In this document: positions 5,906-63,620 of the stretch, in pieces
How positions within the stretch are numbered: the first letter of the stretch is position 1
Layout: each line of letters starts with the position of its first letter
Assembly (NCBI GenBank): GCA_036821485.1
Contig: DAISJM010000002.1
Location: 3,771-67,770 of the forward strand
Direction: 5' to 3'
Length of the DNA stretch: 64,000 nucleotides
From: Verrucomicrobiota bacterium
GTDB taxonomy: Bacteria > Verrucomicrobiota > Kiritimatiellia > CAIQIC01 > JAGNIJ01
Notes under the pieces: model-generated
Told to the model about the DNA's origin: nothing
What the model saw: the letters and a program-made list of their open reading frames with translations, nothing else
Database searches by the model: none
Program-made: the position numbers and the translations under genes

Positions 5906-5931
5906 GGGGTCAGACCTACAAATAACAAATA
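5906..5931. repeat. left terminal inverted repeat of the transposase element
   Basis: Exact reverse complement of 6988-7013. Confidence 0.85.
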
Positions 5932-5934
5932 GGC

Positions 5935-6945
5935 TCATTCCAGCACCCCGAGGCTTCTCTCCGCCTGCTCCAACTTCCGCCGCAGCCCCTTGTCTGTCTT
6001 GACCAGCCGATCCGTTCGCCTCACCTGCCAACTGACCGCCGATCCCCACTGGAGCCCCAGCTCCCGCGCCACCTCCCGTTGCGTCAACCCGCTATGCCGA
6101 CTCAGCAACAGCGCCGCCAGCCCCCGCGCGCCCTGCCCCCTGCTCCGACAGCCAATCTCCTCGACAGGCACCCCCATCACCTGCGACACCGTCTTCAGGA
6201 CTCTCCTCGGCGCCACCGCCACCACCTGCCTTCGAAACGTCGTATCCTCCGGCCTCTTCAACCTGCCAACCTGTTCCGCCCCCACCTCCCGCATTCTCTC
6301 CATGAATCCCTCTCCGCCGATCCCCTCACTCGCCCCCTTCACCAACTTCTGGACTTCCTCGTCCGTCTTTGCCAACCCCTGTTCCACATACTTCCGGTAC
6401 GCCGAAGGCCTCCGCCCTTTCTGCCCCGCCAACTGTGCCAGCACCGGCCCCATCTCCAATCCCTCAATCGCCCTTGCCCTCCCCGCATAGGCCGGGTAGC
6501 TGCTCCAGCGATAGCCCCGCAAATACCGAACCTGCTCTTTTAGCGGCCTTTTCTCGATCTCCCCGACATGCACCGGGTTCAAGTGTACATACCGGCTCAG
6601 TTTCAGCAGGTACTCATCCCCCTCCACCGGCTTTCCCCCAAACCGACCCTGCAACAGATGTCCCACCCGCCGGTGCCTCTTGTTGAAGTACATCGTATAC
6701 GCCGTCATCAGCGACTGCATGAATCGGCTGATATTGGCCCCCGGTGTCTCCACCAGCAGATGCACGTGATTGTTCATCAGGCAGTACAGGTACAGCCTCA
6801 CCCCGTGCTTCCCTGCCTGCTCGCTCAACTGATCTAGGAACCGCCCACGATCCCCGTCATCCCGAAAGATATCCTGCCTCCCGTTCCCCCGAACGGTCAC
6901 GTGGTAGATCGCCCCCTCGAACACAATCCTTAGTTTTCTCGCCAT
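5935..6945 (-). CDS. IS200-like HUH (Y1) transposase fused to a DnaA C-terminal-like HTH domain
   Basis: 336 aa; the HUH motif is NHVHLLV; the catalytic Tyr helix AYTMYFNKRHRRVGHLLQGRF fits the IS200/RayT pattern; the C-terminal ~90 aa (SQVMGVPVEEIGCRSRGQGARGLAALLLSRHSGLTQREVARELG) resembles DnaA domain IV. Confidence 0.85.
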   Translation of the reverse strand: MARKLRIVFEGAIYHVTVRGNGRQDIFRDDGDRGRFLDQLSEQAGKHGVRLYLYCLMNNHVHLLVETPGANISRFMQSLMTAYTMYFNKRHRRVGHLLQGRFGGKPVEGDEYLLKLSRYVHLNPVHVGEIEKRPLKEQVRYLRGYRWSSYPAYAGRARAIEGLEMGPVLAQLAGQKGRRPSAYRKYVEQGLAKTDEEVQKLVKGASEGIGGEGFMERMREVGAEQVGRLKRPEDTTFRRQVVAVAPRRVLKTVSQVMGVPVEEIGCRSRGQGARGLAALLLSRHSGLTQREVARELGLQWGSAVSWQVRRTDRLVKTDKGLRRKLEQAERSLGVLE

Positions 6946-6986: not shown

Positions 6987-7466
6987 TTATTTGTTATTTG
7001 TAGGTCTGACCCCGGAAAGATCGGAAAGATTGCTTGCAGATCTACTCCCAAAGCTACTGAGTATCAGGCGCCCAAGGGAGGTCATCGTGGCCCACCCAAC
7101 ACCAAGAATGAAAATATTGCTGACAGCAGCATTCACGTAATCGAACACGTTGAAGTTCACAAAATCCTTGCTGTTCACCGGATTGGCAAGGAGAGCTAGA
7201 AGGCATAGCGGAGGAAAGCCCAGGAAAAGAACAAGCCCTGTTACGGCACCGACCGCGCGCTGTGCGAATGATGCAACTCTGAGAGAACAGAATATGAACA
7301 CGAGTCCCGACAACGCGGCGAAGTACAGGAAAACGGGATATCCTTCGGCAAAGAAGAACCCGATCGCGTTCTCTCTTTGGCTTTGCAGCGGGATGCTGGC
7401 AACGACGGAGATAGACGCCACACAACACACAATCGCAGAACCCAGTCTTAGCCTTTCAGTACTCAT
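6987..7466 (-). CDS. small 4-TM membrane protein, candidate RHS immunity protein; 3' end modified by the transposon insertion
   Basis: Starts 10 nt after the stop of the RHS C-terminal gene on the same strand. Four predicted TM helices. The final codons GVRPTNNK and the stop are encoded by the right inverted repeat. Confidence 0.55.
   Translation of the reverse strand: MSTERLRLGSAIVCCVASISVVASIPLQSQRENAIGFFFAEGYPVFLYFAALSGLVFIFCSLRVASFAQRAVGAVTGLVLFLGFPPLCLLALLANPVNSKDFVNFNVFDYVNAAVSNIFILGVGWATMTSLGRLILSSFGSRSASNLSDLSGVRPTNNK
6988..7013. repeat. right terminal inverted repeat of the transposase element
   Basis: Exact reverse complement of 5906-5931; it overlaps the last 8 codons and stop of the upstream 4-TM ORF. 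Confidence 0.85.
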
Positions 7467-10089: not shown

Positions 10090-11135
10090 TGCAGAACACA
10101 TTGTTCATCGTAATCCCGACCCTGGCCGTCATACTCGCCGCCGCATGGTGGATACGCCGCAGCATCCTGGCCGCCATCGCCAAGCCGCGCGACGACCAGT
10201 CGTTCGCCCTCCTCCAGAACCAGGTCAACGCCCTCAACACGCAGGTGGCGCAGGCCCTCGACAACACGCGGAAATCGATGGACGAGCGCCTCGACAACGC
10301 CGCGCGCGTCATCCAGGGCGTGAGCAAACAGCTCGGCCAACTCGACGAATCGTCCCGCCGCATTTTCGATATCGGCAAGGATATGGCCAGTCTGCAGGAA
10401 GTGCTCCGCTCGCCGAAGCTGCGCGGCAATATCAGCGAGCTGTTCCTCGAAGACCTCCTCGCGCAGATCCTGCCGCCGGACCATTACAAAATCCAGCACG
10501 CCTTCCGCGGCGGCGAAACCGTCGATGCCGCCATCGTACTGAAAGCCGGACTCGTTCCGGTGGACGCGAAGTTCCCCCTCGAGAACTTCCGGCTCGTGGT
10601 GGCTGCCGCAGACGATGAAGCGCGCAAGATCGCGCGGAAAACCTTCCTGCGCGATGTTAAAATCCACATCGATGCGATCGCCCAGAAATATATCCGGCCC
10701 GACGAGGGTACATTCGATTTCGCGCTGATGTACATCCCGGCCGAAAATGTCTACTACGAGACGATCATCAAGGATACCGACGGCACCGCGGACTTCTCCC
10801 TGTTCAACTACGCCCTCTCGAAACGCGTCATTCCCGTTTCGCCGAACAGCTTCTACGCCTACCTGCAGACCATTCTGCTCGGCCTGAAAGGCATGAAGGT
10901 GGAGGAAAGCGCGCGCGACATGCTCAACGCACTGGCCGCGTTGCACAAGGATTTCGAGCGGTTCGAGGAACCGTTCCGGCTCATCGGGAAGCATCTGGAG
11001 AACTCGCTCAAGCAGTTCGCCGACGCGGATAAGCGGCTCGGGAAACTCACGGGCCGCATGGAGCAAATCGACAGCGCCACCAAGGGCCTCAACGCACCAG
11101 AGGTTCCGCCTGCGATCCACGGCTCCCCGGAATGA
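10090..11135 (+). CDS. rmuC: DNA recombination protein RmuC
   Basis: Start at MQNTLFIVIPTLAVILAAAWW (N-terminal TM), coiled-coil region, and conserved RmuC C-terminal domain (...FDFALMYIPAENVYYE...). The track ORF has a spurious N-terminal extension to 9963. Confidence 0.85.
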
Positions 11136-13554
11136 TCGCCCCGGCCGACTCTGCATCGCGCCACGGTTTCGAGTCCTTGTAGCTCTCCACCATCTTCGCG
11201 AGCGTTGAGCCCGGCGCAAGCTCCTGCGCCCGCCCAGCCAGTTTCACAGCAGCTCCGAATTCGCCCACTTCGGCATGCGCCGCAGCTCGGACCGCCAGCA
11301 CCAGAGGATCCTTCTTATCGCTCAACCAGCCGGCCCGGTCCGCAAGTCGTACCGCCTCGGCGCCATTACGAACAGCGTCCTCCCGACACGTGGCGCGAAT
11401 CCACCCGAGAGCCACCAAGGCCGACGTCTGGTACGGAAGGTCCTGTAAGACATTCTCATACAGGTCGGCCGCTTCACGAAACTTGCCGCGCCGGACCAGG
11501 AGATCGGCCAACTTCTCCTTTGCACGCGCGAAGTGAGGCAACTCCTTCAACACAGCTTCGAGTCCATCACGCGCATCGTCCAACGCGCCCACGGCCAGCG
11601 CCAGCATCGCGCGGTTGTACAAGCCCTGCACGTTGCGTGGATGCTCGCGCACCACGCGCTCCAGCAAGGCGTAGGCATCGTCGAACCGGCTCATCGATGT
11701 GAAACTGCCCGCCAGGTTCACCTGCGCATCGACGTTCCGCGGATTAAGCTGCAGCGCGCGTTCGAAGAACGGCACGCTTGCGGGAATCGATCCAAGCCCC
11801 GCCAGCCTCGCCCCCACGCGGACAAAATCCCGATCGCGCCCACGCTTATCCACGCCCTCTTCCAAGGTTTGGAGAGCGGCGCCCCGGTCGCCCGCGCGCG
11901 CCTGCGCCTCCGCCAGTTGGAGCTTCAGATCGTGACACCACGGCGCGATTTCGCCGGCCGACTGCAGCACGGGTACCGCCGCCGCACCATCTCCGACGTC
12001 CATCAACAACCGCGCAAAATTCTGCCGCATCATCCAATCGTCGGGCCGCGCGGCCATCGCGCGTTGGTAAAGGTCCCTTACTTCATCGCCGCCCGCAGGC
12101 CGGGCCGCCCGCGCCTTCTCCTGCCACAGGTACACCGCTTCCTCGTTGAAGGCCTGCCGGATAAACGGCGCCCGCTTTGATCGCTCGCAAATCTCCAGGT
12201 ATGTCTTCGCTTCATCCGCGGCCGAAAACGCGATCTGTTCCTTGCACGCGTCCATCGACGGGACTGCATCCGACCCACCCAACCCCAACAGCAAGCCCAC
12301 GCCATCCAGCAGCCGCGATGCCACCCGGTAGTTGCCCTCGAACGAGAAATGTACGTGATCGAGGAAGACACCGTCCCCCAGCAACTCGGGGTCCTCGGTC
12401 AGGTTCAGCAAGGCGAATCGCGGCCGCGAGCAGTCGGACACCGCGAAGATGATCTCGTTGATCCGCGTATCGGCCCGAAACCGCAGCGCATCGAGATCAC
12501 GCGCCGCCTCATATTCCGCCATCGCGTCCTGCCCCAGTCGCTCCATGCACCGCGCACGACGATAGCGCAGCTCGGCATATTCATCATCCAAGCGACTCGC
12601 CTCATCATACGATTTCAGCGCGTCCTTCCAGTCGGCAGATGCCTCGCAGCTGGTTCCATCCGCCCACGCTTTTCCCCACGCCGCGAGGTCCGCTGCGGCC
12701 AGCCCGCGGCGATGCTGCGACGCAAACGGCGGACACACGCGCAGGTTCACCGCGACGGTGCACAGCAACACCCCTGCTTTTGCATCGCCGGCGAAACTCA
12801 TAATGTCGCGCAAGTTCGATTCAAAATGGCTGTAGGCCGCCTCCAACGCGGGATCGTCATGAGCCACCAGCGTCTGCGAAAACATCGAGAGCCCTTCCCA
12901 TTCCGGCAGGCCCCGATCGCCCTTCGCAAGCTGCACGCCGGCGTCGAGCAACTGCCCCACGCGCGTCGCGCGATAGAACATATTCGCGCGGATATACGGC
13001 AGGCTACCCGAGAACGTGCGGAACGTGGTCCCCGGCCCGTACGGCCCGAGGATCTCGTTGTTGCCCATGTAGATAACGAAGAGGTCCGGCTCCGCCTGGG
13101 CACAGGCACGCGCAATCTCACGCACCGCATGCGAGTTGATCGCCGTCATCGCGACATTGACCAGTTCCACCTGCGCGTCCGGATAACGCTCGCGGAGCAT
13201 CACGTCCAATATCCGCGTGAAACTGTAATTGCCGGCAGGGTCGCCAAGCGCCGCCGATTCGCCCAGCACAAAGACGCGGCGGACGCCTGCCGGTTTCGGG
13301 GTTTGCAGGGCCAAATCGAGCGGCGCGCGCGCAATGGCCCGCGGAAAGAACCGCCAGCCGAAACGCTCGTTGACGTGCAACACAGTCCTGCCGTCTGCCA
13401 GCCGCATCGGTACCAGAAAAGCCGAGGGATATCCCCATCCCGCGATGCGCAGCCCAATTTCGAGACAGCCCACCACCAAAGCCGGGGCGAGCAGCGCCAG
13501 AAGCGCCCGCTTGGCCCAAATTGCACCGCGTCCTGTCCGTCCGCCTGTCGTCAT
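11089..13554 (-). CDS. SGNH/GDSL-hydrolase-like N-terminal domain fused to a long TPR-repeat region
   Basis: 821 aa. N-terminal signal anchor, VFVLGESAALG and YMGNNE motifs typical of SGNH hydrolases, and many TPR-like repeats in the C-terminal two thirds. Its 3' end overlaps the rmuC 3' end by ~47 bp (convergent). Confidence 0.7.
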   Translation of the reverse strand: MTTGGRTGRGAIWAKRALLALLAPALVVGCLEIGLRIAGWGYPSAFLVPMRLADGRTVLHVNERFGWRFFPRAIARAPLDLALQTPKPAGVRRVFVLGESAALGDPAGNYSFTRILDVMLRERYPDAQVELVNVAMTAINSHAVREIARACAQAEPDLFVIYMGNNEILGPYGPGTTFRTFSGSLPYIRANMFYRATRVGQLLDAGVQLAKGDRGLPEWEGLSMFSQTLVAHDDPALEAAYSHFESNLRDIMSFAGDAKAGVLLCTVAVNLRVCPPFASQHRRGLAAADLAAWGKAWADGTSCEASADWKDALKSYDEASRLDDEYAELRYRRARCMERLGQDAMAEYEAARDLDALRFRADTRINEIIFAVSDCSRPRFALLNLTEDPELLGDGVFLDHVHFSFEGNYRVASRLLDGVGLLLGLGGSDAVPSMDACKEQIAFSAADEAKTYLEICERSKRAPFIRQAFNEEAVYLWQEKARAARPAGGDEVRDLYQRAMAARPDDWMMRQNFARLLMDVGDGAAAVPVLQSAGEIAPWCHDLKLQLAEAQARAGDRGAALQTLEEGVDKRGRDRDFVRVGARLAGLGSIPASVPFFERALQLNPRNVDAQVNLAGSFTSMSRFDDAYALLERVVREHPRNVQGLYNRAMLALAVGALDDARDGLEAVLKELPHFARAKEKLADLLVRRGKFREAADLYENVLQDLPYQTSALVALGWIRATCREDAVRNGAEAVRLADRAGWLSDKKDPLVLAVRAAAHAEVGEFGAAVKLAGRAQELAPGSTLAKMVESYKDSKPWRDAESAGAIIPGSRGSQAEPLVR

Positions 13555-13667
13555 GACGCCCTGTCAGTACCACATCCGGCACGCCAAGGTGAAGCCAAGG
13601 TTACGGCTCCAAACGCGAACTTTGTCGCTTGAGCCTGCCGGATTTACCCCCTATTCTACGCGCATTC

Positions 13668-14546
13668 ATGACGACTCCGATCATAGCTTTTGCAAATCAA
13701 AAGGGCGGCGTGGGCAAGACCACCACGGTCGTCAGCCTGGCCGCGTGCCTCGCCGAACGGCGCAAGAGGATACTCCTCGTCGACCTCGACCCGCAGGCCA
13801 ATGCCACCAGCGGCCTCGGCATGGAGAAGGTCGAGGGCCAAAGCATCTACCACGCACTCCTCGGCGAGAGCCCCGCGGAACCTCTCATCAAGTCCACCGC
13901 CATGGAGCGGCTCGACATCATCGGCTCGGAAGTCGATCTCGCCGGCGCGGAAGTGGATATCGCCCGCTCCGACCGATATCTGCATCGCTTCAAGGAAACG
14001 ATCACTCCTGTCGCCGACAGCGGCCGCTACGATTACATCTTCGTCGACTGCCCGCCCTCGCTGGGCATCCTGACCATGAACGCATTGACCGCCGCCGAGT
14101 CCATCATCATCCCTCTGCAGTGCGAATACTTCGCGCTCGAGGGCCTGAGCGTGATCACCCGACTCGCCGAGCGGCTGCGCGACAGCGGCGCCAACCCCGG
14201 GCTGCGCGTGGAAGGCATTGCGATGACGATGTACGACATGCGGACGAACCTCTCCCAGCAGGTCGTTCAGGAAGTGGTCTCCCATTTCGGCAATCTCGTC
14301 TACGAAACGCTCATCCCACGCAGCGTGCGCCTCAGCGAAGCACCGAGTTTCGGCAAGCCCATCATCCTCTACGACCGCAACTGCACCGGGTCCGCAGCCT
14401 ATCGCCAACTCGCCCGCGAATTTCTCGACCGTCGACGCATGGGAATCCCGGGCATGCCGGAAGAAGAAATCGTCGAGGAAGAATCCGAGCCCGTTGAGGA
14501 ACAGCCGGCAGAATCGCCGGCCGAAGACCAGCCGCCGGCGCAATAG
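13668..14546 (+). CDS. parA: ParA/Soj-family partition ATPase (orphan, no adjacent parB) with acidic C-terminal tail
   Basis: MTTPIIAFANQKGGVGKTTTVVSLAA... has the deviant Walker A KGGVGKTT. Soj-like throughout. The C-terminus is EEEIVEEESEPVEEQPAESPAEDQPPAQ. The alternative upstream ATG at 13629 is less likely. Confidence 0.85.
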   Translation: MTTPIIAFANQKGGVGKTTTVVSLAACLAERRKRILLVDLDPQANATSGLGMEKVEGQSIYHALLGESPAEPLIKSTAMERLDIIGSEVDLAGAEVDIARSDRYLHRFKETITPVADSGRYDYIFVDCPPSLGILTMNALTAAESIIIPLQCEYFALEGLSVITRLAERLRDSGANPGLRVEGIAMTMYDMRTNLSQQVVQEVVSHFGNLVYETLIPRSVRLSEAPSFGKPIILYDRNCTGSAAYRQLAREFLDRRRMGIPGMPEEEIVEEESEPVEEQPAESPAEDQPPAQ

Positions 14547-14566
14547 GCGGCCGCCGCGCCACACAT

Positions 14567-14647
14567 TTTTCCAATGATTGGAAAAATGGCATTCAGATTT
14601 TCCAACCCTTGGAAAAACAGCGACAGAATTTTCCAAGGGTTGGAAAA
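14567..14647. promoter_or_regulatory. three tandem copies of the 19-bp palindrome TTTTCCAA-N3-TTGGAAAA at 31-bp phasing
   Basis: 14567-14585 TTTTCCAATGATTGGAAAA; 14598-14616 TTTTCCAACCCTTGGAAAA; 14629-14647 TTTTCCAAGGGTTGGAAAA, which is the exact reverse complement of copy 2. They lie in the convergent gap between the parA stop (14546) and the def stop (14648). Confidence 0.6.
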
Positions 14648-15208
14648 TCAGCCCGTCTCGAGCGCCTCGCGCGTTTCCTTCTTCAGCCGCTTGAGTTGAC
14701 CGGACAACGCGATGCGCTTGATGCGCGACATGCGGTCCACGAGAAGCACGCCGTTGAGATGATCGATTTCGTGTTGCGCCACGCGGGCCACGAATTTCTT
14801 CAACCGCAGTTCCTGCGGCTTGCCTTTGAGATCCAGAAATTGAACCGTCACTTCGACCGACCGCGACACCGGCGCATATATATCGGGGAAGCTCAGGCAC
14901 CCCTCGTCGGCCACTTCCTTCTCGCCTGAAAAATCGGTGATCTTCGGATTGACCAGCACCAGCGGCATCGTCACGCCCGGATTGAGTACAACCCCATCTT
15001 CGGAACGATCCATCTCCAGCGGCACTTCGATGACGCAAATCGCGTCGGTACTTCCCACCTGCTGGGCAGCCAACCCGACTCCCCGCTCGAGCCGCATGGT
15101 CTCGATCATATCCTTCGCCAGCGTGCGAATGTTGTCGTCCACCTCGCGAACCGGGACCGCCGGCTCTCGAAGGACCTCGTCGCCATACGTATGGATAGCC
15201 TTCTTCAA
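14648..15208 (-). CDS. def: peptide deformylase
   Basis: 186 aa with the conserved motifs GVGLAAQQVG, EGCLSFP and QHEIDHLNG. Confidence 0.95.
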   Translation of the reverse strand: MKKAIHTYGDEVLREPAVPVREVDDNIRTLAKDMIETMRLERGVGLAAQQVGSTDAICVIEVPLEMDRSEDGVVLNPGVTMPLVLVNPKITDFSGEKEVADEGCLSFPDIYAPVSRSVEVTVQFLDLKGKPQELRLKKFVARVAQHEIDHLNGVLLVDRMSRIKRIALSGQLKRLKKETREALETG

Positions 15209-15304
15209 ATCGGTAAACCTTTCCCTGTCACAATACCTTTTCCATCGAGCAAATCAACCGGTTCCACTTGCCGTTTGCGGGGTCTTTCCATAGAGTATGG
15301 GCGC

Positions 15305-16069
15305 ATGAACCGCATCCTGATCGTCGTACCGACCTATAACGAGAAGGAGAACATTCGCGAGATCGCGCAGGCCATTCTGGCCGCCTGCCCGCAAGCCAAT
15401 ATCCTTTTCGTGGATGATAATTCCCCGGACGGCACCGGCCGCATGGCCGATGAGATGAGCCAGGCCGACCAGCGTATTCAGGTTCTGCACCGCAGTGGCA
15501 AGCAAGGTCTGGGCCGCGCCTACCTTGCCGGTTTCAAGTGGGCCCTTGAGCGTGACTACGAATTCATCTTCGAGATGGATGCCGATTTCTCCCACAACCC
15601 GGCCGACCTGCCCCGTTTGCTGGAGGGCGCTCAGTCGGCCGACCTCGCATTGGGCTCCCGCTACATCGGCGGCATCCGCGTCATCAACTGGCCCCTGAGC
15701 CGGCTCTTCTTGAGCAAAGGCGCCGCCGTCTATGTCAGACTGATCACGGGGATGCCGTTCACAGACCCGACCGGCGGATTCAAGTGCTATCGCCGCGCGG
15801 TGCTGGAGACCATCAACCTGGAACATATCAAATCCAACGGATACTCATTCCAGATCGAAATGACACACACGGCATGGCGCAAGGGCTTCCACATCGTGGA
15901 GGTTCCGATCACGTTCGAGGAACGTCGCTCCGGTTTTTCGAAAATGAGTTCGCATATCGTACGCGAAGCGTTGTGGATGGTGTGGAAGTTGCTCCTTCGC
16001 TCGGGATTCCGGCGCAGCCCCGGCCAGCGCAACGCCCGAAGCGCTATCGCCCACGGAGCCCCGTCATGA
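15305..16069 (+). CDS. GT2 family polyprenol-phosphate mannosyl/glycosyltransferase (Dpm1-like)
   Basis: MNRILIVVPTYNEKENI...FVDDNSPDGT...EMDADFSHNP; Dpm1/Ppm1-like. Start chosen at the internal Met at 15305. Confidence 0.8.
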   Translation: MNRILIVVPTYNEKENIREIAQAILAACPQANILFVDDNSPDGTGRMADEMSQADQRIQVLHRSGKQGLGRAYLAGFKWALERDYEFIFEMDADFSHNPADLPRLLEGAQSADLALGSRYIGGIRVINWPLSRLFLSKGAAVYVRLITGMPFTDPTGGFKCYRRAVLETINLEHIKSNGYSFQIEMTHTAWRKGFHIVEVPITFEERRSGFSKMSSHIVREALWMVWKLLLRSGFRRSPGQRNARSAIAHGAPS

Positions 16070-30577: not shown

Positions 30578-31243
30578 ATGAACCCGATTATCCTCAAGTC
30601 GCTATTGATCCTCGCCGCCTATCTCCTGGGCGCCGTCCCAATCGGGCTGCTGCTCGCACGCATGAAAGGCGTGGACATCCGTACCGTGGGCAGCGGCAAT
30701 ATCGGTGCAACCAATGTATTCCGATCCGTCAGCAAAGGATTGGGCATCCTGACGTTCGTGGGTGACGCCGTGAAGGGCTTTGTGCCAGCGTTCGTTTTTC
30801 CAATCCTTGGAAAATACCTCTTCGGAACTCTCCAAGGTTCGGAAATCGGCATCCTGTGCGGGTTCGCCGCCATCGCCGGACACAACTGGCCCGTCTTCCT
30901 TCGCTTCAAGGGCGGCAAAGGCATCGCCACCAGCGCCGGAGTACTGCTTGGCATCGCTCCTGCCGCCGTCGGCATCGGTCTCGCTGCGTGGATACTCCTC
31001 TTTGTCATCAGCCGGTATGTGTCCGTGGCGTCCATCGGCGCTGCCCTTGCCGTGCCAGCCGCATCGTGGATCATGTATCTCCCCCGGGGGCTTTTGCTCC
31101 CCTCTGTCCTGACCCTGCTGGGCTTGATCGCCGTGTGGCGTCACAAATCCAACATCCAGCGGCTCCTCAACGGCACCGAGCATCGGTTCCAGTTTGGGAA
31201 GAAGCCCAACGAAAGCACATCTGGATCAACACATCAGAACTGA
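30578..31243 (+). CDS. plsY: glycerol-3-phosphate acyltransferase PlsY
   Basis: MNPIILKSLLILAAYLLGAVPIG...GSGNIGATNV...GHNWPVFLRFKGGKGIATSAG. Confidence 0.9.
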   Translation: MNPIILKSLLILAAYLLGAVPIGLLLARMKGVDIRTVGSGNIGATNVFRSVSKGLGILTFVGDAVKGFVPAFVFPILGKYLFGTLQGSEIGILCGFAAIAGHNWPVFLRFKGGKGIATSAGVLLGIAPAAVGIGLAAWILLFVISRYVSVASIGAALAVPAASWIMYLPRGLLLPSVLTLLGLIAVWRHKSNIQRLLNGTEHRFQFGKKPNESTSGSTHQN

Positions 31244-41334: not shown

Positions 41335-41766
41335 TCATCCAGCGGACGGCAACCCCGTACGCCAGAGAATTCCGGGAATCCCGGCAAAGTGCCGGTCGTG
41401 GCTGATGATCTCTGCGTGGATCGATTGCGCGCAGACGGCAATGGCGAGATCGGTAAGCGGCAACACCCGGCCCTTACGGTCCAACTTCCACGCCAGATTC
41501 GCCACAGCTTCCCAAATAGCCGCGGTGGTCTCCACGGAGGGAATGAGATCGAAGAACTCCTCCATCTCCGACCGGACTGCCGGGTTAATGACCCCCCGGA
41601 TGACTTCCGCCCGGATCAGGCCGCAAGACGCCAGCGCCCCGGACTGGACATAGGGCGCCAGCATTCTGACGGGACTGTGACCACGCCTCATCCAGTCGAT
41701 ATAGACCGTGGAATCAACGAGCAGAACGGCCACGAGGCGTCTCCCGGTTGCGCATGGCGACCACAT
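41335..41766 (-). CDS. vapC: type II toxin VapC (PIN-domain ribonuclease)
   Basis: ...VAVLLVDSTVYIDW...PLTDLAIAVCAQSIHAEIISHDRHF. The true start is probably a few codons inside and overlaps the vapB stop. Confidence 0.8.
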   Translation of the reverse strand: MWSPCATGRRLVAVLLVDSTVYIDWMRRGHSPVRMLAPYVQSGALASCGLIRAEVIRGVINPAVRSEMEEFFDLIPSVETTAAIWEAVANLAWKLDRKGRVLPLTDLAIAVCAQSIHAEIISHDRHFAGIPGILWRTGLPSAG

Positions 41767-41953
41767 CGTACTTCGGGTCCACGGCGGACTTGTATTCCGT
41801 TTCGCGGACCGCGCAGGTCAGCAGCTTCTTCAACCGTGCCGCGCGCTCAGCTTCGGTCAACGCGTAATCCACCGCGGCCTTACGCGTCTTGAGACCCGCC
41901 ACCTGCATCACGCGCTTGAGCTTGGCCTCATCGATATCAATCGTGGTCTTCAT
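41714..41953 (-). CDS. vapB: type II antitoxin VapB (DUF2191 / RHH-like)
   Basis: MKTTIDIDEAKLKRVMQVAGLKTRKAAVDYALTEAERAARLKKL...; overlaps vapC. Confidence 0.8.
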   Translation of the reverse strand: MKTTIDIDEAKLKRVMQVAGLKTRKAAVDYALTEAERAARLKKLLTCAVRETEYKSAVDPKYDVVAMRNRETPRGRSAR

Positions 41954-42028
41954 ACGGGAAATGATACGGCAGATGCTGCCGTACTTCAAGCCGTATTACG
42001 GAGTCTCGCGACGGTTACTGCGGATGGC

Positions 42029-56691: not shown

Positions 56692-57477
56692 TCAAGTGCG
56701 CATGCGGTGCCAGACCAGTAACAGTCCGCCCAGCAGAAGCATCAGCGCCGTTGGCTCGGGGATTATTGCAATCCGCGAGAAGGTCACGGTCTCCTCGGGG
56801 CCCAAATCCGAGCCCGTGCCGTTGATGACTCCGACGTAGAACCTGGTGTCCTGGTTGAAGGGGGTAGTGGCAACCGTCATGCCCGAAGTCACGATCCTGC
56901 CCGAACCCGCGTCATACCAAAGCGCCGCCGTCGTCCCGTTGAGGTCCATGCCAAAGGTGAATCCATCGACTGACGAGCCGACATTGAGGAAACCTAGCTT
57001 GTAGCTCTCATTGTTGTAAGACGTGTGGTCCGCGTCTGTTTTCTCAAACAGGTTGAACCAGAAGGTACCGTCGTTCAAACTGAGTTCGGCCATAACCCCG
57101 TTGGAGTTGTTGTAGTCATCCCACGGCTCGGGATCTGTGTTCCCGTCCGTGGTCGAGAGATACATACGCGCAGCCACGCTATTGTTGCTTGTAAGGTCCC
57201 AGCTCTGAACGGTCATCTGGTAGGATACAAGGCCATTCGCAACCCAGGAATTCGACGAACCTTCGGTGACGATGCCCGACTGCCGCCAGCCGGAAGAACC
57301 ATCTGATGGATTCAGAATCAATGCCCCGTTCACGCTTCCCTGACAGGATCCCATATGGTTCCACTGCCAGTTCGTACCCAAGCTCGTACCCGGGAATGTG
57401 TCCACCAAAGCCGGAGCCAAAGTAGCTCCCAGAATCAGACCAACGATCACCATCCCAATAGTTGCCGCCCTCTTCAT
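56692..57477 (-). CDS. PEP-CTERM sorting-domain secreted protein
   Basis: Signal peptide; C-terminus IPEPTALMLLLGGLLLVWHRMRT. Confidence 0.85.
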   Translation of the reverse strand: MKRAATIGMVIVGLILGATLAPALVDTFPGTSLGTNWQWNHMGSCQGSVNGALILNPSDGSSGWRQSGIVTEGSSNSWVANGLVSYQMTVQSWDLTSNNSVAARMYLSTTDGNTDPEPWDDYNNSNGVMAELSLNDGTFWFNLFEKTDADHTSYNNESYKLGFLNVGSSVDGFTFGMDLNGTTAALWYDAGSGRIVTSGMTVATTPFNQDTRFYVGVINGTGSDLGPEETVTFSRIAIIPEPTALMLLLGGLLLVWHRMRT

Positions 57478-60172: not shown

Positions 60173-60573
60173 TCCCGCCGCTCTCCCTGCGCGCCCGACT
60201 CCAGCAGCCCGGCAAACTTCGCCAACTCCAGAAGCTCGCCCTCGATGTCATTCCACGGCGCCGCAAGAATGTCGCGGCGCGCCACAATGACCACATCGAA
60301 CGGGCCCGCCATCCGAAAGCGATTGCGCCGGTAGGCCTCCCGAAGGAGCCGCTTGGCCCGGGCACGGGCGACGGCGTTTCCGACCTTCTTGCTCGCAACA
60401 ACGCCCAGCCGCAGCGAAGCGTCATCCCCCGAGCGCAACCACAGGACCATGAAACGGCCGATCCAGCGGCGACCTTGGGCGTAGGTCTGGCGGAACAACG
60501 CCGTTCGAGTCAGACGCTGGCTTCGCCTCAAGCCCTGATCGGGCTTCGCGCCTTCCCCGCTGCCCCCCGCCAT
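60169..60573 (-). CDS. rnpA: ribonuclease P protein component
   Basis: [22 protein letters not shown]...[23 protein letters not shown]; 4-nt overlap with yidD. The true start may lie inside the annotated ATG. Confidence 0.85.
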
Positions 60574-60584
60574 GACGACTCCTT

Positions 60585-60719
60585 TTACAGCGAAACTCTC
60601 TTGCGGCCCTTGCGCCGGCGGCGTTGCAAGACTTCGCGCCCCTGCTTCGTAGACATGCGCTTCCGATAACCATGTGACCGGCTGCGTTTCCTCTTTGACG
60701 GCTGATAAGTTCTCTTCAT
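60585..60719 (-). CDS. rpmH: 50S ribosomal protein L34
   Basis: Hand translation gives [44 protein letters not shown]. Not in the ORF track because it is under 60 aa. Confidence 0.92.
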
Positions 60720-60834
60720 TTTGTCTTCCTTACATCGTGGAACTGGCCTTTTCTAACAGCTTCCCCCCGGAAGTCAAATCCGGAAGGACACCTCGCGACC
60801 CCAGTCCATGGGGCGAGAAATCGTTGGATTTCGG

Positions 60835-61737
60835 TCAAAACGGCGCGGCCGTACCGATCTTGCCGCCAAGGGCCGCCTCTGCAATCGAGCGGCCGTCGGC
60901 CAGCACCGGCGTGCGGCGCGGAATCCATTGCCGACGCTTGCCCCGCGCTACCAGGTGGTATCCGCGGGTGAAGAACAGCAGGCCGTCGAGCTGCGCGGCC
61001 AGCCAAAAGACAGGATAAAGAAAGGAATACACCCGAAAGGCCTTCTCGATCTTGCGGAAGTCCTGCTCGTCGGCCAGCATCCCCGCGAAGTCGGCGGACG
61101 AACGGTCTTTGTTGACCTGCCGCACCACGAACCGGCCCAGCGTATCCACCAGTTCCACGAAGAAACGCGAGTAGGTCTTCGCGTCCTGAACGTCAAACCC
61201 GTCCTTGAGCAGCGTGAACAGTTGCGGTTCGGTATAACCCGGCCGCAGGCGGCCGTAGCGCTCATCCGTCAACCCCAGCATCTGCCGGAGCGGCGGCAAC
61301 AAGCCCCACGATTTCACCAGCGGAACCGTGAAAATCAGCCACCCCTTCGGCTTGAGTACCCGGTGACACTCCGCCACAAAAGCCGACTCGTCGGCCACGC
61401 GCTCGAGCACATCGATCGCCACAACCACGTCGAAACTCGCGTCTTCAAAGGGAAACTTTCCGTCGCTGCCGATCTGCGCGCCATCCCCCACCAGCGCCGC
61501 GCAGGCCGCGGCAGACTTCGCATCCAGCTCCAAACTCCGCCACGTACCGCCAAATCGCCGGAGATTCTGGCTGAAAACACCGGAGTGACCGCCAATATCC
61601 AGTCCACGGCGCCCCTCAATGGAACCGCCCAGCAGGGCGGCAATCGACCTGAGCTTCAATTGCCCGGCCAGGGACTTGCTGAAAAGCCTGAGCCTCCATT
61701 CCTGGCTCGAACCGGCCTGTGTCGTTTCTTTCTGCAT
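60835..61737 (-). CDS. class I SAM-dependent methyltransferase
   Basis: MTase motif I LDIGGHSGVFSQNL..., post-I acidic residue, and VVAIDVLERV (motif II/III). Start at MQKETTQAG (61737); the longer track ORF would translate through the palindromic repeats. Confidence 0.75.
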   Translation of the reverse strand: MQKETTQAGSSQEWRLRLFSKSLAGQLKLRSIAALLGGSIEGRRGLDIGGHSGVFSQNLRRFGGTWRSLELDAKSAAACAALVGDGAQIGSDGKFPFEDASFDVVVAIDVLERVADESAFVAECHRVLKPKGWLIFTVPLVKSWGLLPPLRQMLGLTDERYGRLRPGYTEPQLFTLLKDGFDVQDAKTYSRFFVELVDTLGRFVVRQVNKDRSSADFAGMLADEQDFRKIEKAFRVYSFLYPVFWLAAQLDGLLFFTRGYHLVARGKRRQWIPRRTPVLADGRSIAEAALGGKIGTAAPF

Positions 61738-61815
61738 CGGACCCGGATTGTAGCACGCGGAAACGGCGTGTCGCTGAAAAAAAGCCCCGGCCAGATGGCG
61801 CGGCGGGGTATCAAA

Positions 61816-61864
61816 ACTCCCGGGTTTGCGGTATATTTCCAATGCTTGGAAAAAAGGAGGCGGG
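61816..61864. promoter_or_regulatory. two copies of the TTTCCAA-N3-TTGGAAAA palindrome at 30-bp spacing in a divergent promoter region
   Basis: 61816-61834 TTTCCAATGCTTGGAAAA; 61846-61864 TTTTCCAACCATTGGAAAA; these end ~45 bp upstream of the ATG at 61911. Confidence 0.6.
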
Positions 61865-61910
61865 GTTTTCCAACCATTGGAAAATCCGTCGCCCACGGCA
61901 GCAGGTGACT

Positions 61911-63620
61911 ATGAATCACAATCCGATGGATGTAACCGTCACGTTCGAGGACGGCCGCAAGACAACATGCCCGGCCGGTACGCCGCTCAAGGTGCTCATG
62001 AAGGAGCGCCGCACGCCTCAAGGCCTGGATTACCTCGGCGCGCTGGTGAACAACGATGTGGTCTCCCTCTCCTACCCGCTCGAAGTCGACAGTGAAATCA
62101 AGTTCCTCACGCTGGCCGACTCCCACGGTCAGCGCATCTATCGCCGCTCCGCCTCGTTCATCCTCGCCAAGGCCGTGCGCGAGCTTTATCCGCAGGCCCG
62201 CTTTTCCGTCGAGCATTCGCTGGGCGATAGCTTCTACTGCAGCTTTGACATGAACGGCTCGGTGGCCAACCACAACGGCAACAATCACAACGATCATCCC
62301 GTCACCCAGGAACAACTCGACGCGATCGAACGCCGCATGCGCGAACTGGTCACACGCAACATTCCCATCGAGCGCCGGAAAATATCCTTCACCGAGGCAA
62401 TGAAGCAGTTCGAAACCGAGCAGCAGATGGACAAGTACAACTTGCTGCGCTTCCGCAACCCACCGAAGATCGTGATCTTCTGGTGCGAGGGATTCTCCGA
62501 TCTCGGTCATGGCCCGCTCGTCGAAAGCACCGGCGCCGTCCGCACCTTCAAGCTCATCCCCTACCCGCCCGGTTTCGTCATCCAGTTCCCGGAAAAGGAA
62601 AAGCCGGCGGAGCTTTCCCCGTTTGAGCCGCAGCCGTACCTGTTCCACATTTTCAAGGAACACAAGGAATGGGGCCGCATTCTCGGCGTCAACACCGTCG
62701 GCCGCCTGAACGAAATCATCGCGAATCGAGAGATCGGCGACTTCATCAAGATCGCCGAGGCGTTCCACGAGAAACGCATCGCGCGCATTGCGGACGACAT
62801 CCAGGGCAACCGCGACCGGATCAAGTGGATCCTCATCGCCGGGCCTTCCTCCTCAGGCAAAACCACGTTCGCCAAGCGGCTTGCCGTTCAGCTCCGCGTC
62901 AACGGCCTGCAGCCGGTCACGATCTCCGTCGACAACTACTTCGTGAACCGCGAGCAGACGCCGCGCGACGAAAAGGGCGATTACGACTTCGAGAACATCG
63001 AGACGATCGATCTCGCCCTCTTCAACGACCACCTGAAGCGTCTCGACGAGGGCGGCGAAGTCGACGTGCCGCACTACGATTTCGGAACAGGCACACGCGA
63101 ATATCGCGGCGAGAAGCTGCACATCGCCCACGGCCAACTCGTGCTGGTGGAAGGCATTCACGCGCTGAACCCGAAACTGACGGAGTCGGTGCCCACCGAA
63201 CACAAGCTGCGGATTTATGTCAGCGCGCTGACCCAGCTCAACCTCGACTTCAACAACCGGATATCTACCACCGACAACCGGCTCGTGCGGCGGCTCGTGC
63301 GCGACAACGCCTTCCGCGGCAACTCGGCGCTGACCACGCTCTCGATGTGGCCCAATGTGCGCCGCGGCGAGAAGACGTGGATCTTTCCGTTCCAGCAATA
63401 TGCGGATATCGCCTTCAACTCGGCGCTGGACTACGAGCTCGCGGTGCTGAAGCCTTCGGTCGAACCCCTGTTGGCAGAAGTGAAGCCCAACCAGCCGCAA
63501 TACGCGGAAGCGCGGCGCATGCAGGATTTCCTCGCGAGTTTTCTGAGCGTGTCGGACCACCTGGTTCCGCCGACGTCGATCCTGAGGGAATTCATCGGCC
63601 GCAGCAGTTTCCGCTACTGA
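61911..63620 (+). CDS. TGS-domain (ThrRS N-terminal-like) protein fused to a uridine kinase / phosphoribulokinase-family nucleoside kinase
   Basis: N-terminal TGS-like domain (MNHNPMDVTVTFEDGRKTTCPAGTPLKVL...); C-terminal P-loop kinase ILIAGPSSSGKTTFAKRL...VSVDNYF...LVLVEGIHAL, typical of Udk/PRK. Confidence 0.8.
   Translation: MNHNPMDVTVTFEDGRKTTCPAGTPLKVLMKERRTPQGLDYLGALVNNDVVSLSYPLEVDSEIKFLTLADSHGQRIYRRSASFILAKAVRELYPQARFSVEHSLGDSFYCSFDMNGSVANHNGNNHNDHPVTQEQLDAIERRMRELVTRNIPIERRKISFTEAMKQFETEQQMDKYNLLRFRNPPKIVIFWCEGFSDLGHGPLVESTGAVRTFKLIPYPPGFVIQFPEKEKPAELSPFEPQPYLFHIFKEHKEWGRILGVNTVGRLNEIIANREIGDFIKIAEAFHEKRIARIADDIQGNRDRIKWILIAGPSSSGKTTFAKRLAVQLRVNGLQPVTISVDNYFVNREQTPRDEKGDYDFENIETIDLALFNDHLKRLDEGGEVDVPHYDFGTGTREYRGEKLHIAHGQLVLVEGIHALNPKLTESVPTEHKLRIYVSALTQLNLDFNNRISTTDNRLVRRLVRDNAFRGNSALTTLSMWPNVRRGEKTWIFPFQQYADIAFNSALDYELAVLKPSVEPLLAEVKPNQPQYAEARRMQDFLASFLSVSDHLVPPTSILREFIGRSSFRY

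Follow-up and report, generated by a model that had tools for sequence, protein, structure and literature searches.

The stretch analysed here, called the window throughout, comprises 64,000 nucleotides of contig DAISJM010000002.1 from a Verrucomicrobiota bacterium of the class Kiritimatiellia (assembly GCA_036821485.1). The element in question is a pair of 19-bp palindromes in the divergent region between a class I S-adenosylmethionine (SAM) methyltransferase gene and a udk-like gene (Table 1). An initial annotation had described two copies of TTTTCCAA-N3-TTGGAAAA between the start of the methyltransferase (61737, minus strand) and that of the udk-like gene (61911, plus strand), and both are present. 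The interval then given, 61816–61864, lies about 20 bp too far left and holds copy 1 only (61835–61853, which opens with ATTTCCAA), and the start-to-start distance is 31 bp, not 30 bp. The distance of ~1.1 kb to rpmH (60585–60719) was borne out, as was the adjoining rpmH-rnpA-yidD-yidC-jag block, in which rnpA, yidC and a jag-like KH/R3H gene are recognised by Pfam, and rpmH and yidD from translations of open reading frames (ORFs) only. The flanking genes had been rightly named as a methyltransferase and a uridine kinase (PRK), the latter with a region resembling the N terminus of threonyl-tRNA synthetase (ThrRS), except that no Pfam match to TGS was obtained at E ≤ 0.001.

An extended methyltransferase start at 61896 had been raised as an option that would make the repeats coding. 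The orthologue in locus L121 aligns from residue 1 of the 300-aa form, and this form, starting at 61737, is called in five of six strain-level assemblies, not the 353-aa GTG extension. Both observations favour the start at 61737, and the pair is therefore non-coding. The udk ATG at 61911 is preceded by AGGTGA, which resembles a Shine-Dalgarno sequence. A weak sigma-70-like match (GCGACA-16 nt-TG-TACAAT, 61774–61747) between the array and the methyltransferase start is a promoter candidate for the latter gene, and a sigma-70 scan around the pair returned no match beyond this one.

The window contains six matches to the palindrome with at most two mismatches, where 100 dinucleotide shuffles predict 0.01. 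A position-weight scan yielded six sites of at least 33.7 bits and nothing else above 13.8 bits, the best score in 20 shuffled windows being 12. Chance is excluded by this excess and by the separation from shuffled sequence. The half-site TTTTCCAA is confined to the palindromes, with no other occurrence in the window, and the density of this genome is ~0.4 loci per 10 kb. The copy inside plsY (30796) encodes VFPILGK, with six of the seven codons rare (P ~4e-6 given the codon usage of the window), which indicates that the DNA sequence, and not the peptide, is being kept.

Table 1. Palindromic sites of the window and the genes discussed with them
Feature	Position	Strand	Remarks
Palindrome copy 1 of the pair	61835–61853	.	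ATTTCCAATGCTTGGAAAA; 1 mismatch (base A, weakly conserved position 1); 34.8 bits
Spacer	61854–61865	.	12 bp; length conserved, sequence not; gives 31-bp phasing (three helical turns)
Palindrome copy 2 of the pair	61866–61884	.	TTTTCCAACCATTGGAAAA; perfect; 34.0 bits; 27 bp from its end to the udk ATG
udk-like gene (ThrRS-N-terminal-like / uridine-kinase (PRK) fusion)	61911–63620	+	Located 3' of the pair, both here and in at least 5 related contigs
Class I SAM methyltransferase (Methyltransf_11) gene, divergent from udk	60835–61737	-	Supported start, ATG 61737
Three-copy array	14567–14647	.	Copies at 14567, 14598 and 14629; 31-bp phasing; takes up the 101 bp between parA and def, whose 3' ends converge
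Orphan parA/soj-type ATPase gene	13629–14546	+	parB not found nearby; stop codon 20 bp before the array
Doublet inside plsY	30796–30846	.	Perfect copy 30796–30814 and degenerate partner 30828–30846; 32-bp spacing
Weak single site in TPR gene	11858–11876	.	TCTTCCAAGGTTTGGAGAG; 13.8 bits; family membership uncertain
RAYT-like Y1 transposase gene	5935–6945	-	336 aa; Y1_Tnp domain; best NCBIfam match 'REP-associated tyrosine transposase', below cut-off

We searched one genome per species (185,579 species) for two TTCCAA-N3-TTGGAA cores separated by a gap of 10–26 bp. Tandem copies were found at no fewer than 118 loci from at least 46 assemblies, where we estimate that fewer than 0.1 matches would arise by chance. 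Among the matches listed, the motif-bearing assemblies are all metagenome-assembled genomes (MAGs) of 49–73% GC, and the core is near-invariant despite this range. These MAGs are labelled Kiritimatiellia, Kiritimatiellales or Pontiella and, inconsistently, Lentisphaerae, Verrucomicrobiota or Spartobacteria; the orthologues of ParA (61–99% identity) carry equally mixed taxon labels. The motif was absent from the searchable literature and from plasmid and phage collections, an absence of evidence that applies to those sources only. The palindrome family is apparently undescribed so far and class-wide in Kiritimatiellia.

The sequence logo, built from 347 sites (the 118 loci and the window), defines a half-site with T at positions 1 (65%), 2 (88%) and 3–4 (98–99%), C at positions 5–6 (100%) and A at positions 7–8 (97–99%). 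At the centre, T or G occupies position 9, C or G position 10 (99% of sites) and A or C position 11, followed by the mirror image of the half-site. The consensus TTTTCCAA-K-S-M-TTGGAAAA thus has an 8-3-8 layout that is effectively a 9-1-9 palindrome, the symmetry reaching positions 9 and 11 (T..A or G..C), and its half-site centres lie 11 bp, one helical turn, apart. Arrays contain one to six copies. The spacing between neighbours (163 pairs at the 118 loci) was 31 or 32 bp in 142 cases (95 and 47, respectively), 30 bp in 5, 21–23 bp in 12 and 62–64 bp in 4; no spacing of 24–29 or 33–41 bp occurred at these loci, in a search that permitted 25–41 bp. Spacers have no conserved sequence except A/T-rich edges, and the flanks show an A/T preference only.

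Bona fide arrays also occur on four to five IMG/VR contigs. The phage-like contig UViG_3300035698_006241 (L172 and L175; 18.8 kb) has 10 sites in three arrays of 3, 4 and 3 copies at gene-module boundaries. It carries a long co-directional gene module and, 310–500 bp from one array, two small divergent genes with weak helix-turn-helix (HTH) similarity; its 64-aa weak-HTH protein is 44% identical to a homologue encoded by L178, a further viral contig with arrays. These arrays fit either a host factor exploited by phages or host DNA misfiled as viral. Three further viral contigs of 47–48% GC (L168, L170 and L171) bear a related yet distinct doublet with the TTCCAA-N3-TTGGAA core, an A/T-rich centre and 28-bp spacing, which is probably a different element matching the search pattern by form only.

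The palindrome stands directly upstream of udk in 6 of 48 metagenome loci with udk relatives (L119, L121, L125, L157, L134 and L148), in which the identity of the udk protein is 64–76%. L119 shows one copy only, at a contig edge, and L125 and L157 are nearly the same sequence over the region shown. The site upstream of udk is the sole one in 9.6 kb in both L134 and L148; the upstream neighbour in L134 differs, so the site follows udk. Alignment of five udk-upstream regions placed 22 of the 27 invariant columns inside the 38 palindrome columns, and strain-level contigs differ by two single-nucleotide polymorphisms in the 180 bp upstream of udk, none of them in the palindromes. The udk pair is a long-standing member of the family, conserved in position. 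An operator-like placement in the divergent region had been suggested, and it is supported by the phylogenetic footprint that the pair forms there.

A second recurrent position is parA. Palindromes adjoin this gene in 5 of 10 loci (the window and nine loci fetched with ±10 kb). The window and L187 have three copies each, 20 bp and 1 bp past the parA stop codon, respectively; L190 has one copy, 2 bp past the stop; L191 has one copy and a degenerate partner in the parA-def gap; and L189 has two copies between rmuC and parA, ~135–200 bp before the parA start. In the four fetched loci these copies are the sole sites in ~21 kb (±10 kb). The gene order pgsA, rodZ-like HTH_25, ftsK, usp, rmuC, parA, def, GT2, ubiA, TMEM260-TPR is largely conserved, with lineage-specific insertions, and ParA has an acidic, proline-rich C-terminal tail. 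No parB was found beside parA in any of the 10 loci (gene tables of the nine fetched loci and scanned ORFs of the window), and tblastn with a Spo0J query detected no ParB-like ORF in 1.57 Mb of related loci. The 16-bp parS consensus TGTTTCACGTGAAACA had no match with up to three mismatches in the window or up to two in the 1.57 Mb, and a canonical parS was rejected on these grounds; the TTTC and GAAA blocks are 9 bp apart in the palindrome vs 4 bp in parS. ParB/parS of the conventional kind may be missing from this lineage, at least in the surroundings of parA. The 3' flank of parA is also a hotspot of small selfish-looking genes, namely HNH (L186), PDDEXK_3 (L189) and Y1_Tnp (L188), and in L188, which lacks the motif, a different palindrome, GCTGGACATAAGTCCAGC, occurs on both sides of parA (9811 and 11579).

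About 90% of the loci (at least 118) are intergenic. Of the intergenic loci, 58% separate tandem genes, 27% divergent ones (background 18%) and 15% convergent ones (background also 18%). All of these percentages are approximate because the gene maps come from a crude GC3-based ORF caller. The ten largest arrays precede unrelated housekeeping genes (mreC, purM, kpsF-like, lysA-like, sulfatase and P-type ATPase genes). Candidate binders were considered and rejected: homologues of the LuxR-type response regulator beside plsY occur at only 4 of the 118 loci, and the small HTH proteins of the array-rich viral contig have no host homologue in related loci, most tblastn matches being translated arrays.

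To distinguish a duplex from a hairpin, we examined degenerate copies picked by phase alone, 31 or 32 bp from a good copy. They carry 174 one-sided changes vs 21 complementary double changes, where shuffling predicts 17 ± 4. There is no excess of compensatory changes, so it is not pairing that has been conserved. Nor can a 1-nt loop account for the constraint at the central base and its neighbours at positions 9 and 11, which two-fold protein contacts can. Together with the spacing by helical turns, these patterns indicate that duplex DNA would be recognised by a two-fold symmetric protein. The motif, with 32 bits or more of information, is intact across at least 46 species-level genomes of very different GC content, which implies a conserved protein partner.

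We therefore favour, with a probability of roughly 55%, the reading that the udk pair belongs to a class-wide family of palindromes and is a cooperative binding array for a putative dimeric DNA-binding protein. Each palindrome would bind one homodimer of a conserved double-stranded-DNA-binding protein, and the 11-bp distance between half-sites would suit a dimer of the HTH type. As the centres of the sites are separated by whole numbers of helical turns, dimers would line up on a single helix face and bind cooperatively. Since the array ends 27 bp before the udk start and lies ~60–110 bp upstream of the sigma-70-like match of the methyltransferase, a bound array would most likely act as an operator or roadblock that impedes or modulates transcription of udk, with a possible effect on the methyltransferase as well. 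A nucleoid-associated or global factor would account for the behaviour of the sites genome-wide better than a pathway regulator would. Protein binding, the dimeric state and the sign of the regulatory effect are what we infer from sequence patterns.

Several observations weigh against this reading. Most udk loci at ~70% identity have no site at all, and 5 of 10 parA loci have none, three ~21-kb site-free parA loci being among the close relatives; given this patchy presence among close relatives, the system is dispensable. Promoters are absent between convergent genes, where 15% of the intergenic loci lie, the conserved parA-def array included. Between tandem genes, arrays show no preferred distance to starts or stops. 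No BLAST cluster emerged among 284 flanking proteins, and the downstream genes have no common theme (172 Pfam families in 133 genes, each found at most three times); a specific regulon was rejected for want of a recurrent family in these two scans. No DNA-binding gene family recurs beside the arrays, and no binder candidate was found among the neighbours. Abundance also varies in a way that is not typical of operators evolving site by site. Counted as further loci in the blocks fetched for one tandem array, the density reaches 1.7–5 per 10 kb in seven assemblies represented by several blocks (CAIVKH, CAISWQ, SCQF, CAYYYX, JAIPIO, JAEIOF and JBFWJN) and is zero in most others; held across a few-Mb genome, the higher density would extrapolate to the order of 1000 loci. 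Some genomes, for instance RZZM and CAISWQ, have their own repeat-unit consensus, which is suggestive of copy-and-paste amplification.

The Y1 transposase gene of the window (5935–6945) encodes a protein with a long C-terminal region, for which a DnaA-like character had been proposed; the similarity to HTH/Bac_DnaA_C is weak (E=0.18). The gene is bracketed by perfect 26-nt inverted repeats, GGGGTCAGACCTACAAATAACAAATA (5906–5931 and 6988–7013), which contain GTAG and the palindrome GGTCTGACC, are unrelated to the motif and occur nowhere else in the window. It lies in a lower-GC stretch beside RHS/YD-repeat fragments. No motif copy was present within 4 kb of the Y1 gene of L083. A link between the motif and transposases of the REP-associated tyrosine transposase (RAYT) type, where REP stands for repetitive extragenic palindrome, was rejected, as neither of the two Y1 genes examined (window and L083) is flanked by the motif and that of the window has its own inverted repeats.

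The family could nevertheless be a selfish or semi-domesticated repeat akin to REPs and bacterial interspersed mosaic elements (BIMEs), mobilised as a single-stranded hairpin by a Y1 transposase of the RAYT type, with the udk pair as an old insertion of at most secondary effect. As in the REP/BIME systems of Proteobacteria, the palindromes are short, intergenic, often clustered and regularly spaced, range from few copies to an extrapolated ~1000 and are amplified within genomes. Spacers within a Hamming distance of 3 make up 5.5% of comparisons within assemblies vs 1.0% between them, and two copies in L052 have 31 of 40 flank bases alike; with the genome-specific unit consensus, these similarities show that the element has been amplified within genomes. 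The patchiness among close relatives and the RAYT-like genes of the window, L083 and L188 point the same way, as does the other palindrome flanking parA in motif-less L188, which adjoins a Y1 gene. REPs, however, are usually species- or genus-specific, whereas here one perfect 19-bp palindrome is kept class-wide, in at least 46 assemblies of 49–73% GC. A GTAG-type flanking tetranucleotide was looked for and is absent from the sites, the examined Y1 genes lack flanking copies, and old copies keep the palindrome at conserved positions while their spacers and N3 have completely diverged. Compensatory covariation is lacking, the constraints on the central base and positions 9 and 11 fall where a hairpin loop would be, and the phasing follows helical turns. 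On balance we regard a transposase-driven origin of the pair as doubtful. Hairpins acting at the RNA level, in 5' leaders or 3' ends as terminators, processing sites or stabilisers, are very improbable. Each copy could form an 8-bp stem with a 3-nt loop, and arrays often begin a few bases past a stop codon. In L185, a motif-less locus whose ParA is 78% identical, a bidirectional intrinsic terminator (A8-GGCCGCG...CGCGGCC-T4, 10930–10975) occupies the position of the parA array of the window, and a classical terminator was seen at only ~5% of the 3' ends scanned in these genomes. This locus remains one suggestive case of an array in place of an intrinsic terminator; a systematic scan found classical terminators rare everywhere, and that idea was dropped. 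The stem is A-T in six of eight pairs and is not followed by a T-run, and a terminator scan of 60500–62300 found none. In 13400–15400 no match had its stem within the array; the only one at the parA site, a short hairpin on the minus strand (14663–14651), lies just inside def with its T-run drawn from the last palindrome. The udk leader folds with no unusual stability (z = -1.5), and no Rfam family matches the element. Helical-turn phasing and a fixed central base have no RNA rationale, and 27% of the intergenic loci lie between divergent genes. Compensatory changes show no excess, so a hairpin is unlikely.

The neighbourhood of the pair had also suggested DnaA-box-like sites tied to a replication origin, either oriC or a DnaA-titration cluster beside rpmH. 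The pair does adjoin the rpmH-rnpA-yidD-yidC-jag block, and its half-site has TT.TCCA in common with the DnaA box TTATCCACA (6 of 9 positions), but the near-invariant T3 (99%) and A8 (97%), and K9, stand where the box has A/W, C and A. The window corresponds to about 2801–66800 of JGI contig Ga0116242_10000103 (180,751 bp), which allowed the next 10 kb to be read. All 2-kb bins of the window have negative GC skew (-0.02 to -0.25) despite mixed gene orientation, as do all 1-kb bins over the stretch that begins 10 kb ahead of udk and stops 9.3 kb beyond it; the sign does not change in the 64 kb or the next 10 kb, so that the skew minimum which the initial annotation had proposed to look for does not fall at the pair. 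If the usual leading-strand excess of G holds, the whole window would be replicated from the right. The reported lack of dnaA was confirmed for the 46 window ORFs scanned against Pfam and for the next 10 kb, where the genes are for glycosyl-transferases, an amylase and an MscS channel. Twelve 9-mers come within one mismatch of the DnaA box (TTATCCACA or TTWTNCACA); they are scattered over the 64 kb rather than clustered, with none in 61738–61910 and the nearest at 62186, inside udk. Per genome, the motif itself is present at anything from dozens of loci to ~1000 by extrapolation, and a dyad-symmetric 19-mer suggests a dimer, unlike the 9-mer boxes, each of which is bound by monomeric DnaA. Because of the skew, the absent dnaA, the scatter of boxes and the copy number, we reject an origin role, the chances of which we rate as close to nil. 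A centromere-like or chromosome-organising function with the orphan ParA, analogous to parS or sopC and independent of ParB/parS, of which the udk pair would be an origin-proximal member, is quite unlikely too. The sites resemble parS in being palindromic and sometimes lying in coding DNA, the plsY copy being kept through rare codons as happens with parS. The sopC site of the F plasmid consists of 12 repeats of 43 bp, each with a SopB-binding palindrome; in several genomes here a regular array likewise lies directly 3' of a partition ATPase gene (1–54 bp past the stop codon in four of the five loci). Three loci fall inside 47 kb of the window, which also contains ftsK and rpmH-rnpA-yidC, and neither parB near parA nor a parS match or ParB-like ORF in the 1.57 Mb was found. 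In other genomes, unlike parS, the sites appear dispersed over many large contigs: JAOSKE01, which is near-complete, has arrays on each of its three scaffolds, CAISWQ01 has them on at least 11 contigs, and some genomes would carry ~1000 loci by the extrapolation above. Sites are missing at half of the parA loci, parA appears at none of the at least 118 tandem-array loci listed, and no candidate centromere-binding protein was found.

A few further features of the window lie apart from the palindromes. A VapB-VapC (PIN) toxin-antitoxin pair (41335–41989) adjoins an NMT1/ABC transporter operon. A PEP-CTERM-type gene between an ABC permease and the jag-like gene (56692–57477; 4782–5543 in L179) is missing from the near-identical L180 and L181; gene tables alone point to a strain-level insertion or deletion of ~0.9 kb. 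RHS fragments, PEP-CTERM genes and the Y1 gene are contained in two islands of lower GC, at 4–8 kb (55–57% GC) and 26–28 kb (55%).

The cooperative binding array that we propose for a dimeric protein has its closest parallels in known operator arrays. NrdR boxes are two 16-bp palindromes 31–32 bp apart, the NtrC sites of glnAp2 lie 32 bp apart and Lrp arrays repeat at ~3 turns. The Kiritimatiellia arrays likewise consist of dyad sites (16–19 bp across all these systems) in two or more copies, spaced by integral, usually three, helical turns, with unconserved spacers; they form intergenic phylogenetic footprints and keep their placement upstream of orthologous genes, as with udk. They differ in that the palindromes are unrelated in sequence, in the lack of a coherent regulon and of a candidate regulator in our searches, and in their additional occurrence between convergent genes and at an extrapolated ~1000 loci in some genomes. 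Across the family, the palindromes behave like a global or architectural element with REP-like amplification.

Kiritimatiellia are abundant degraders of polysaccharides with almost no genetics, and to our knowledge the class has no described partition site, nucleoid protein or regulatory motif. A broader possibility, which we put forward tentatively and consider unlikely as a whole, is an undescribed chromosome-organising system of Kiritimatiellia. A putative dimeric protein would coat phased arrays at transcription-unit boundaries, in the manner of an insulator or nucleoid-associated protein; the ancient array beside the orphan parA would be a ParB-independent centromere-like loading site; and the repeat would amplify to an extrapolated ~1000 loci and be borrowed by phages. 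For annotation, the start of the methyltransferase is settled, a false origin call is removed and the arrays are not to be taken as coding. The family joins features that are usually separate, namely operator-like symmetry with helical phasing, REP-like abundance with amplification, and a conserved place beside a parA without parB. The identity of the binder would inform how repeats turn regulatory or architectural, and how chromosomes are segregated in Kiritimatiellia.

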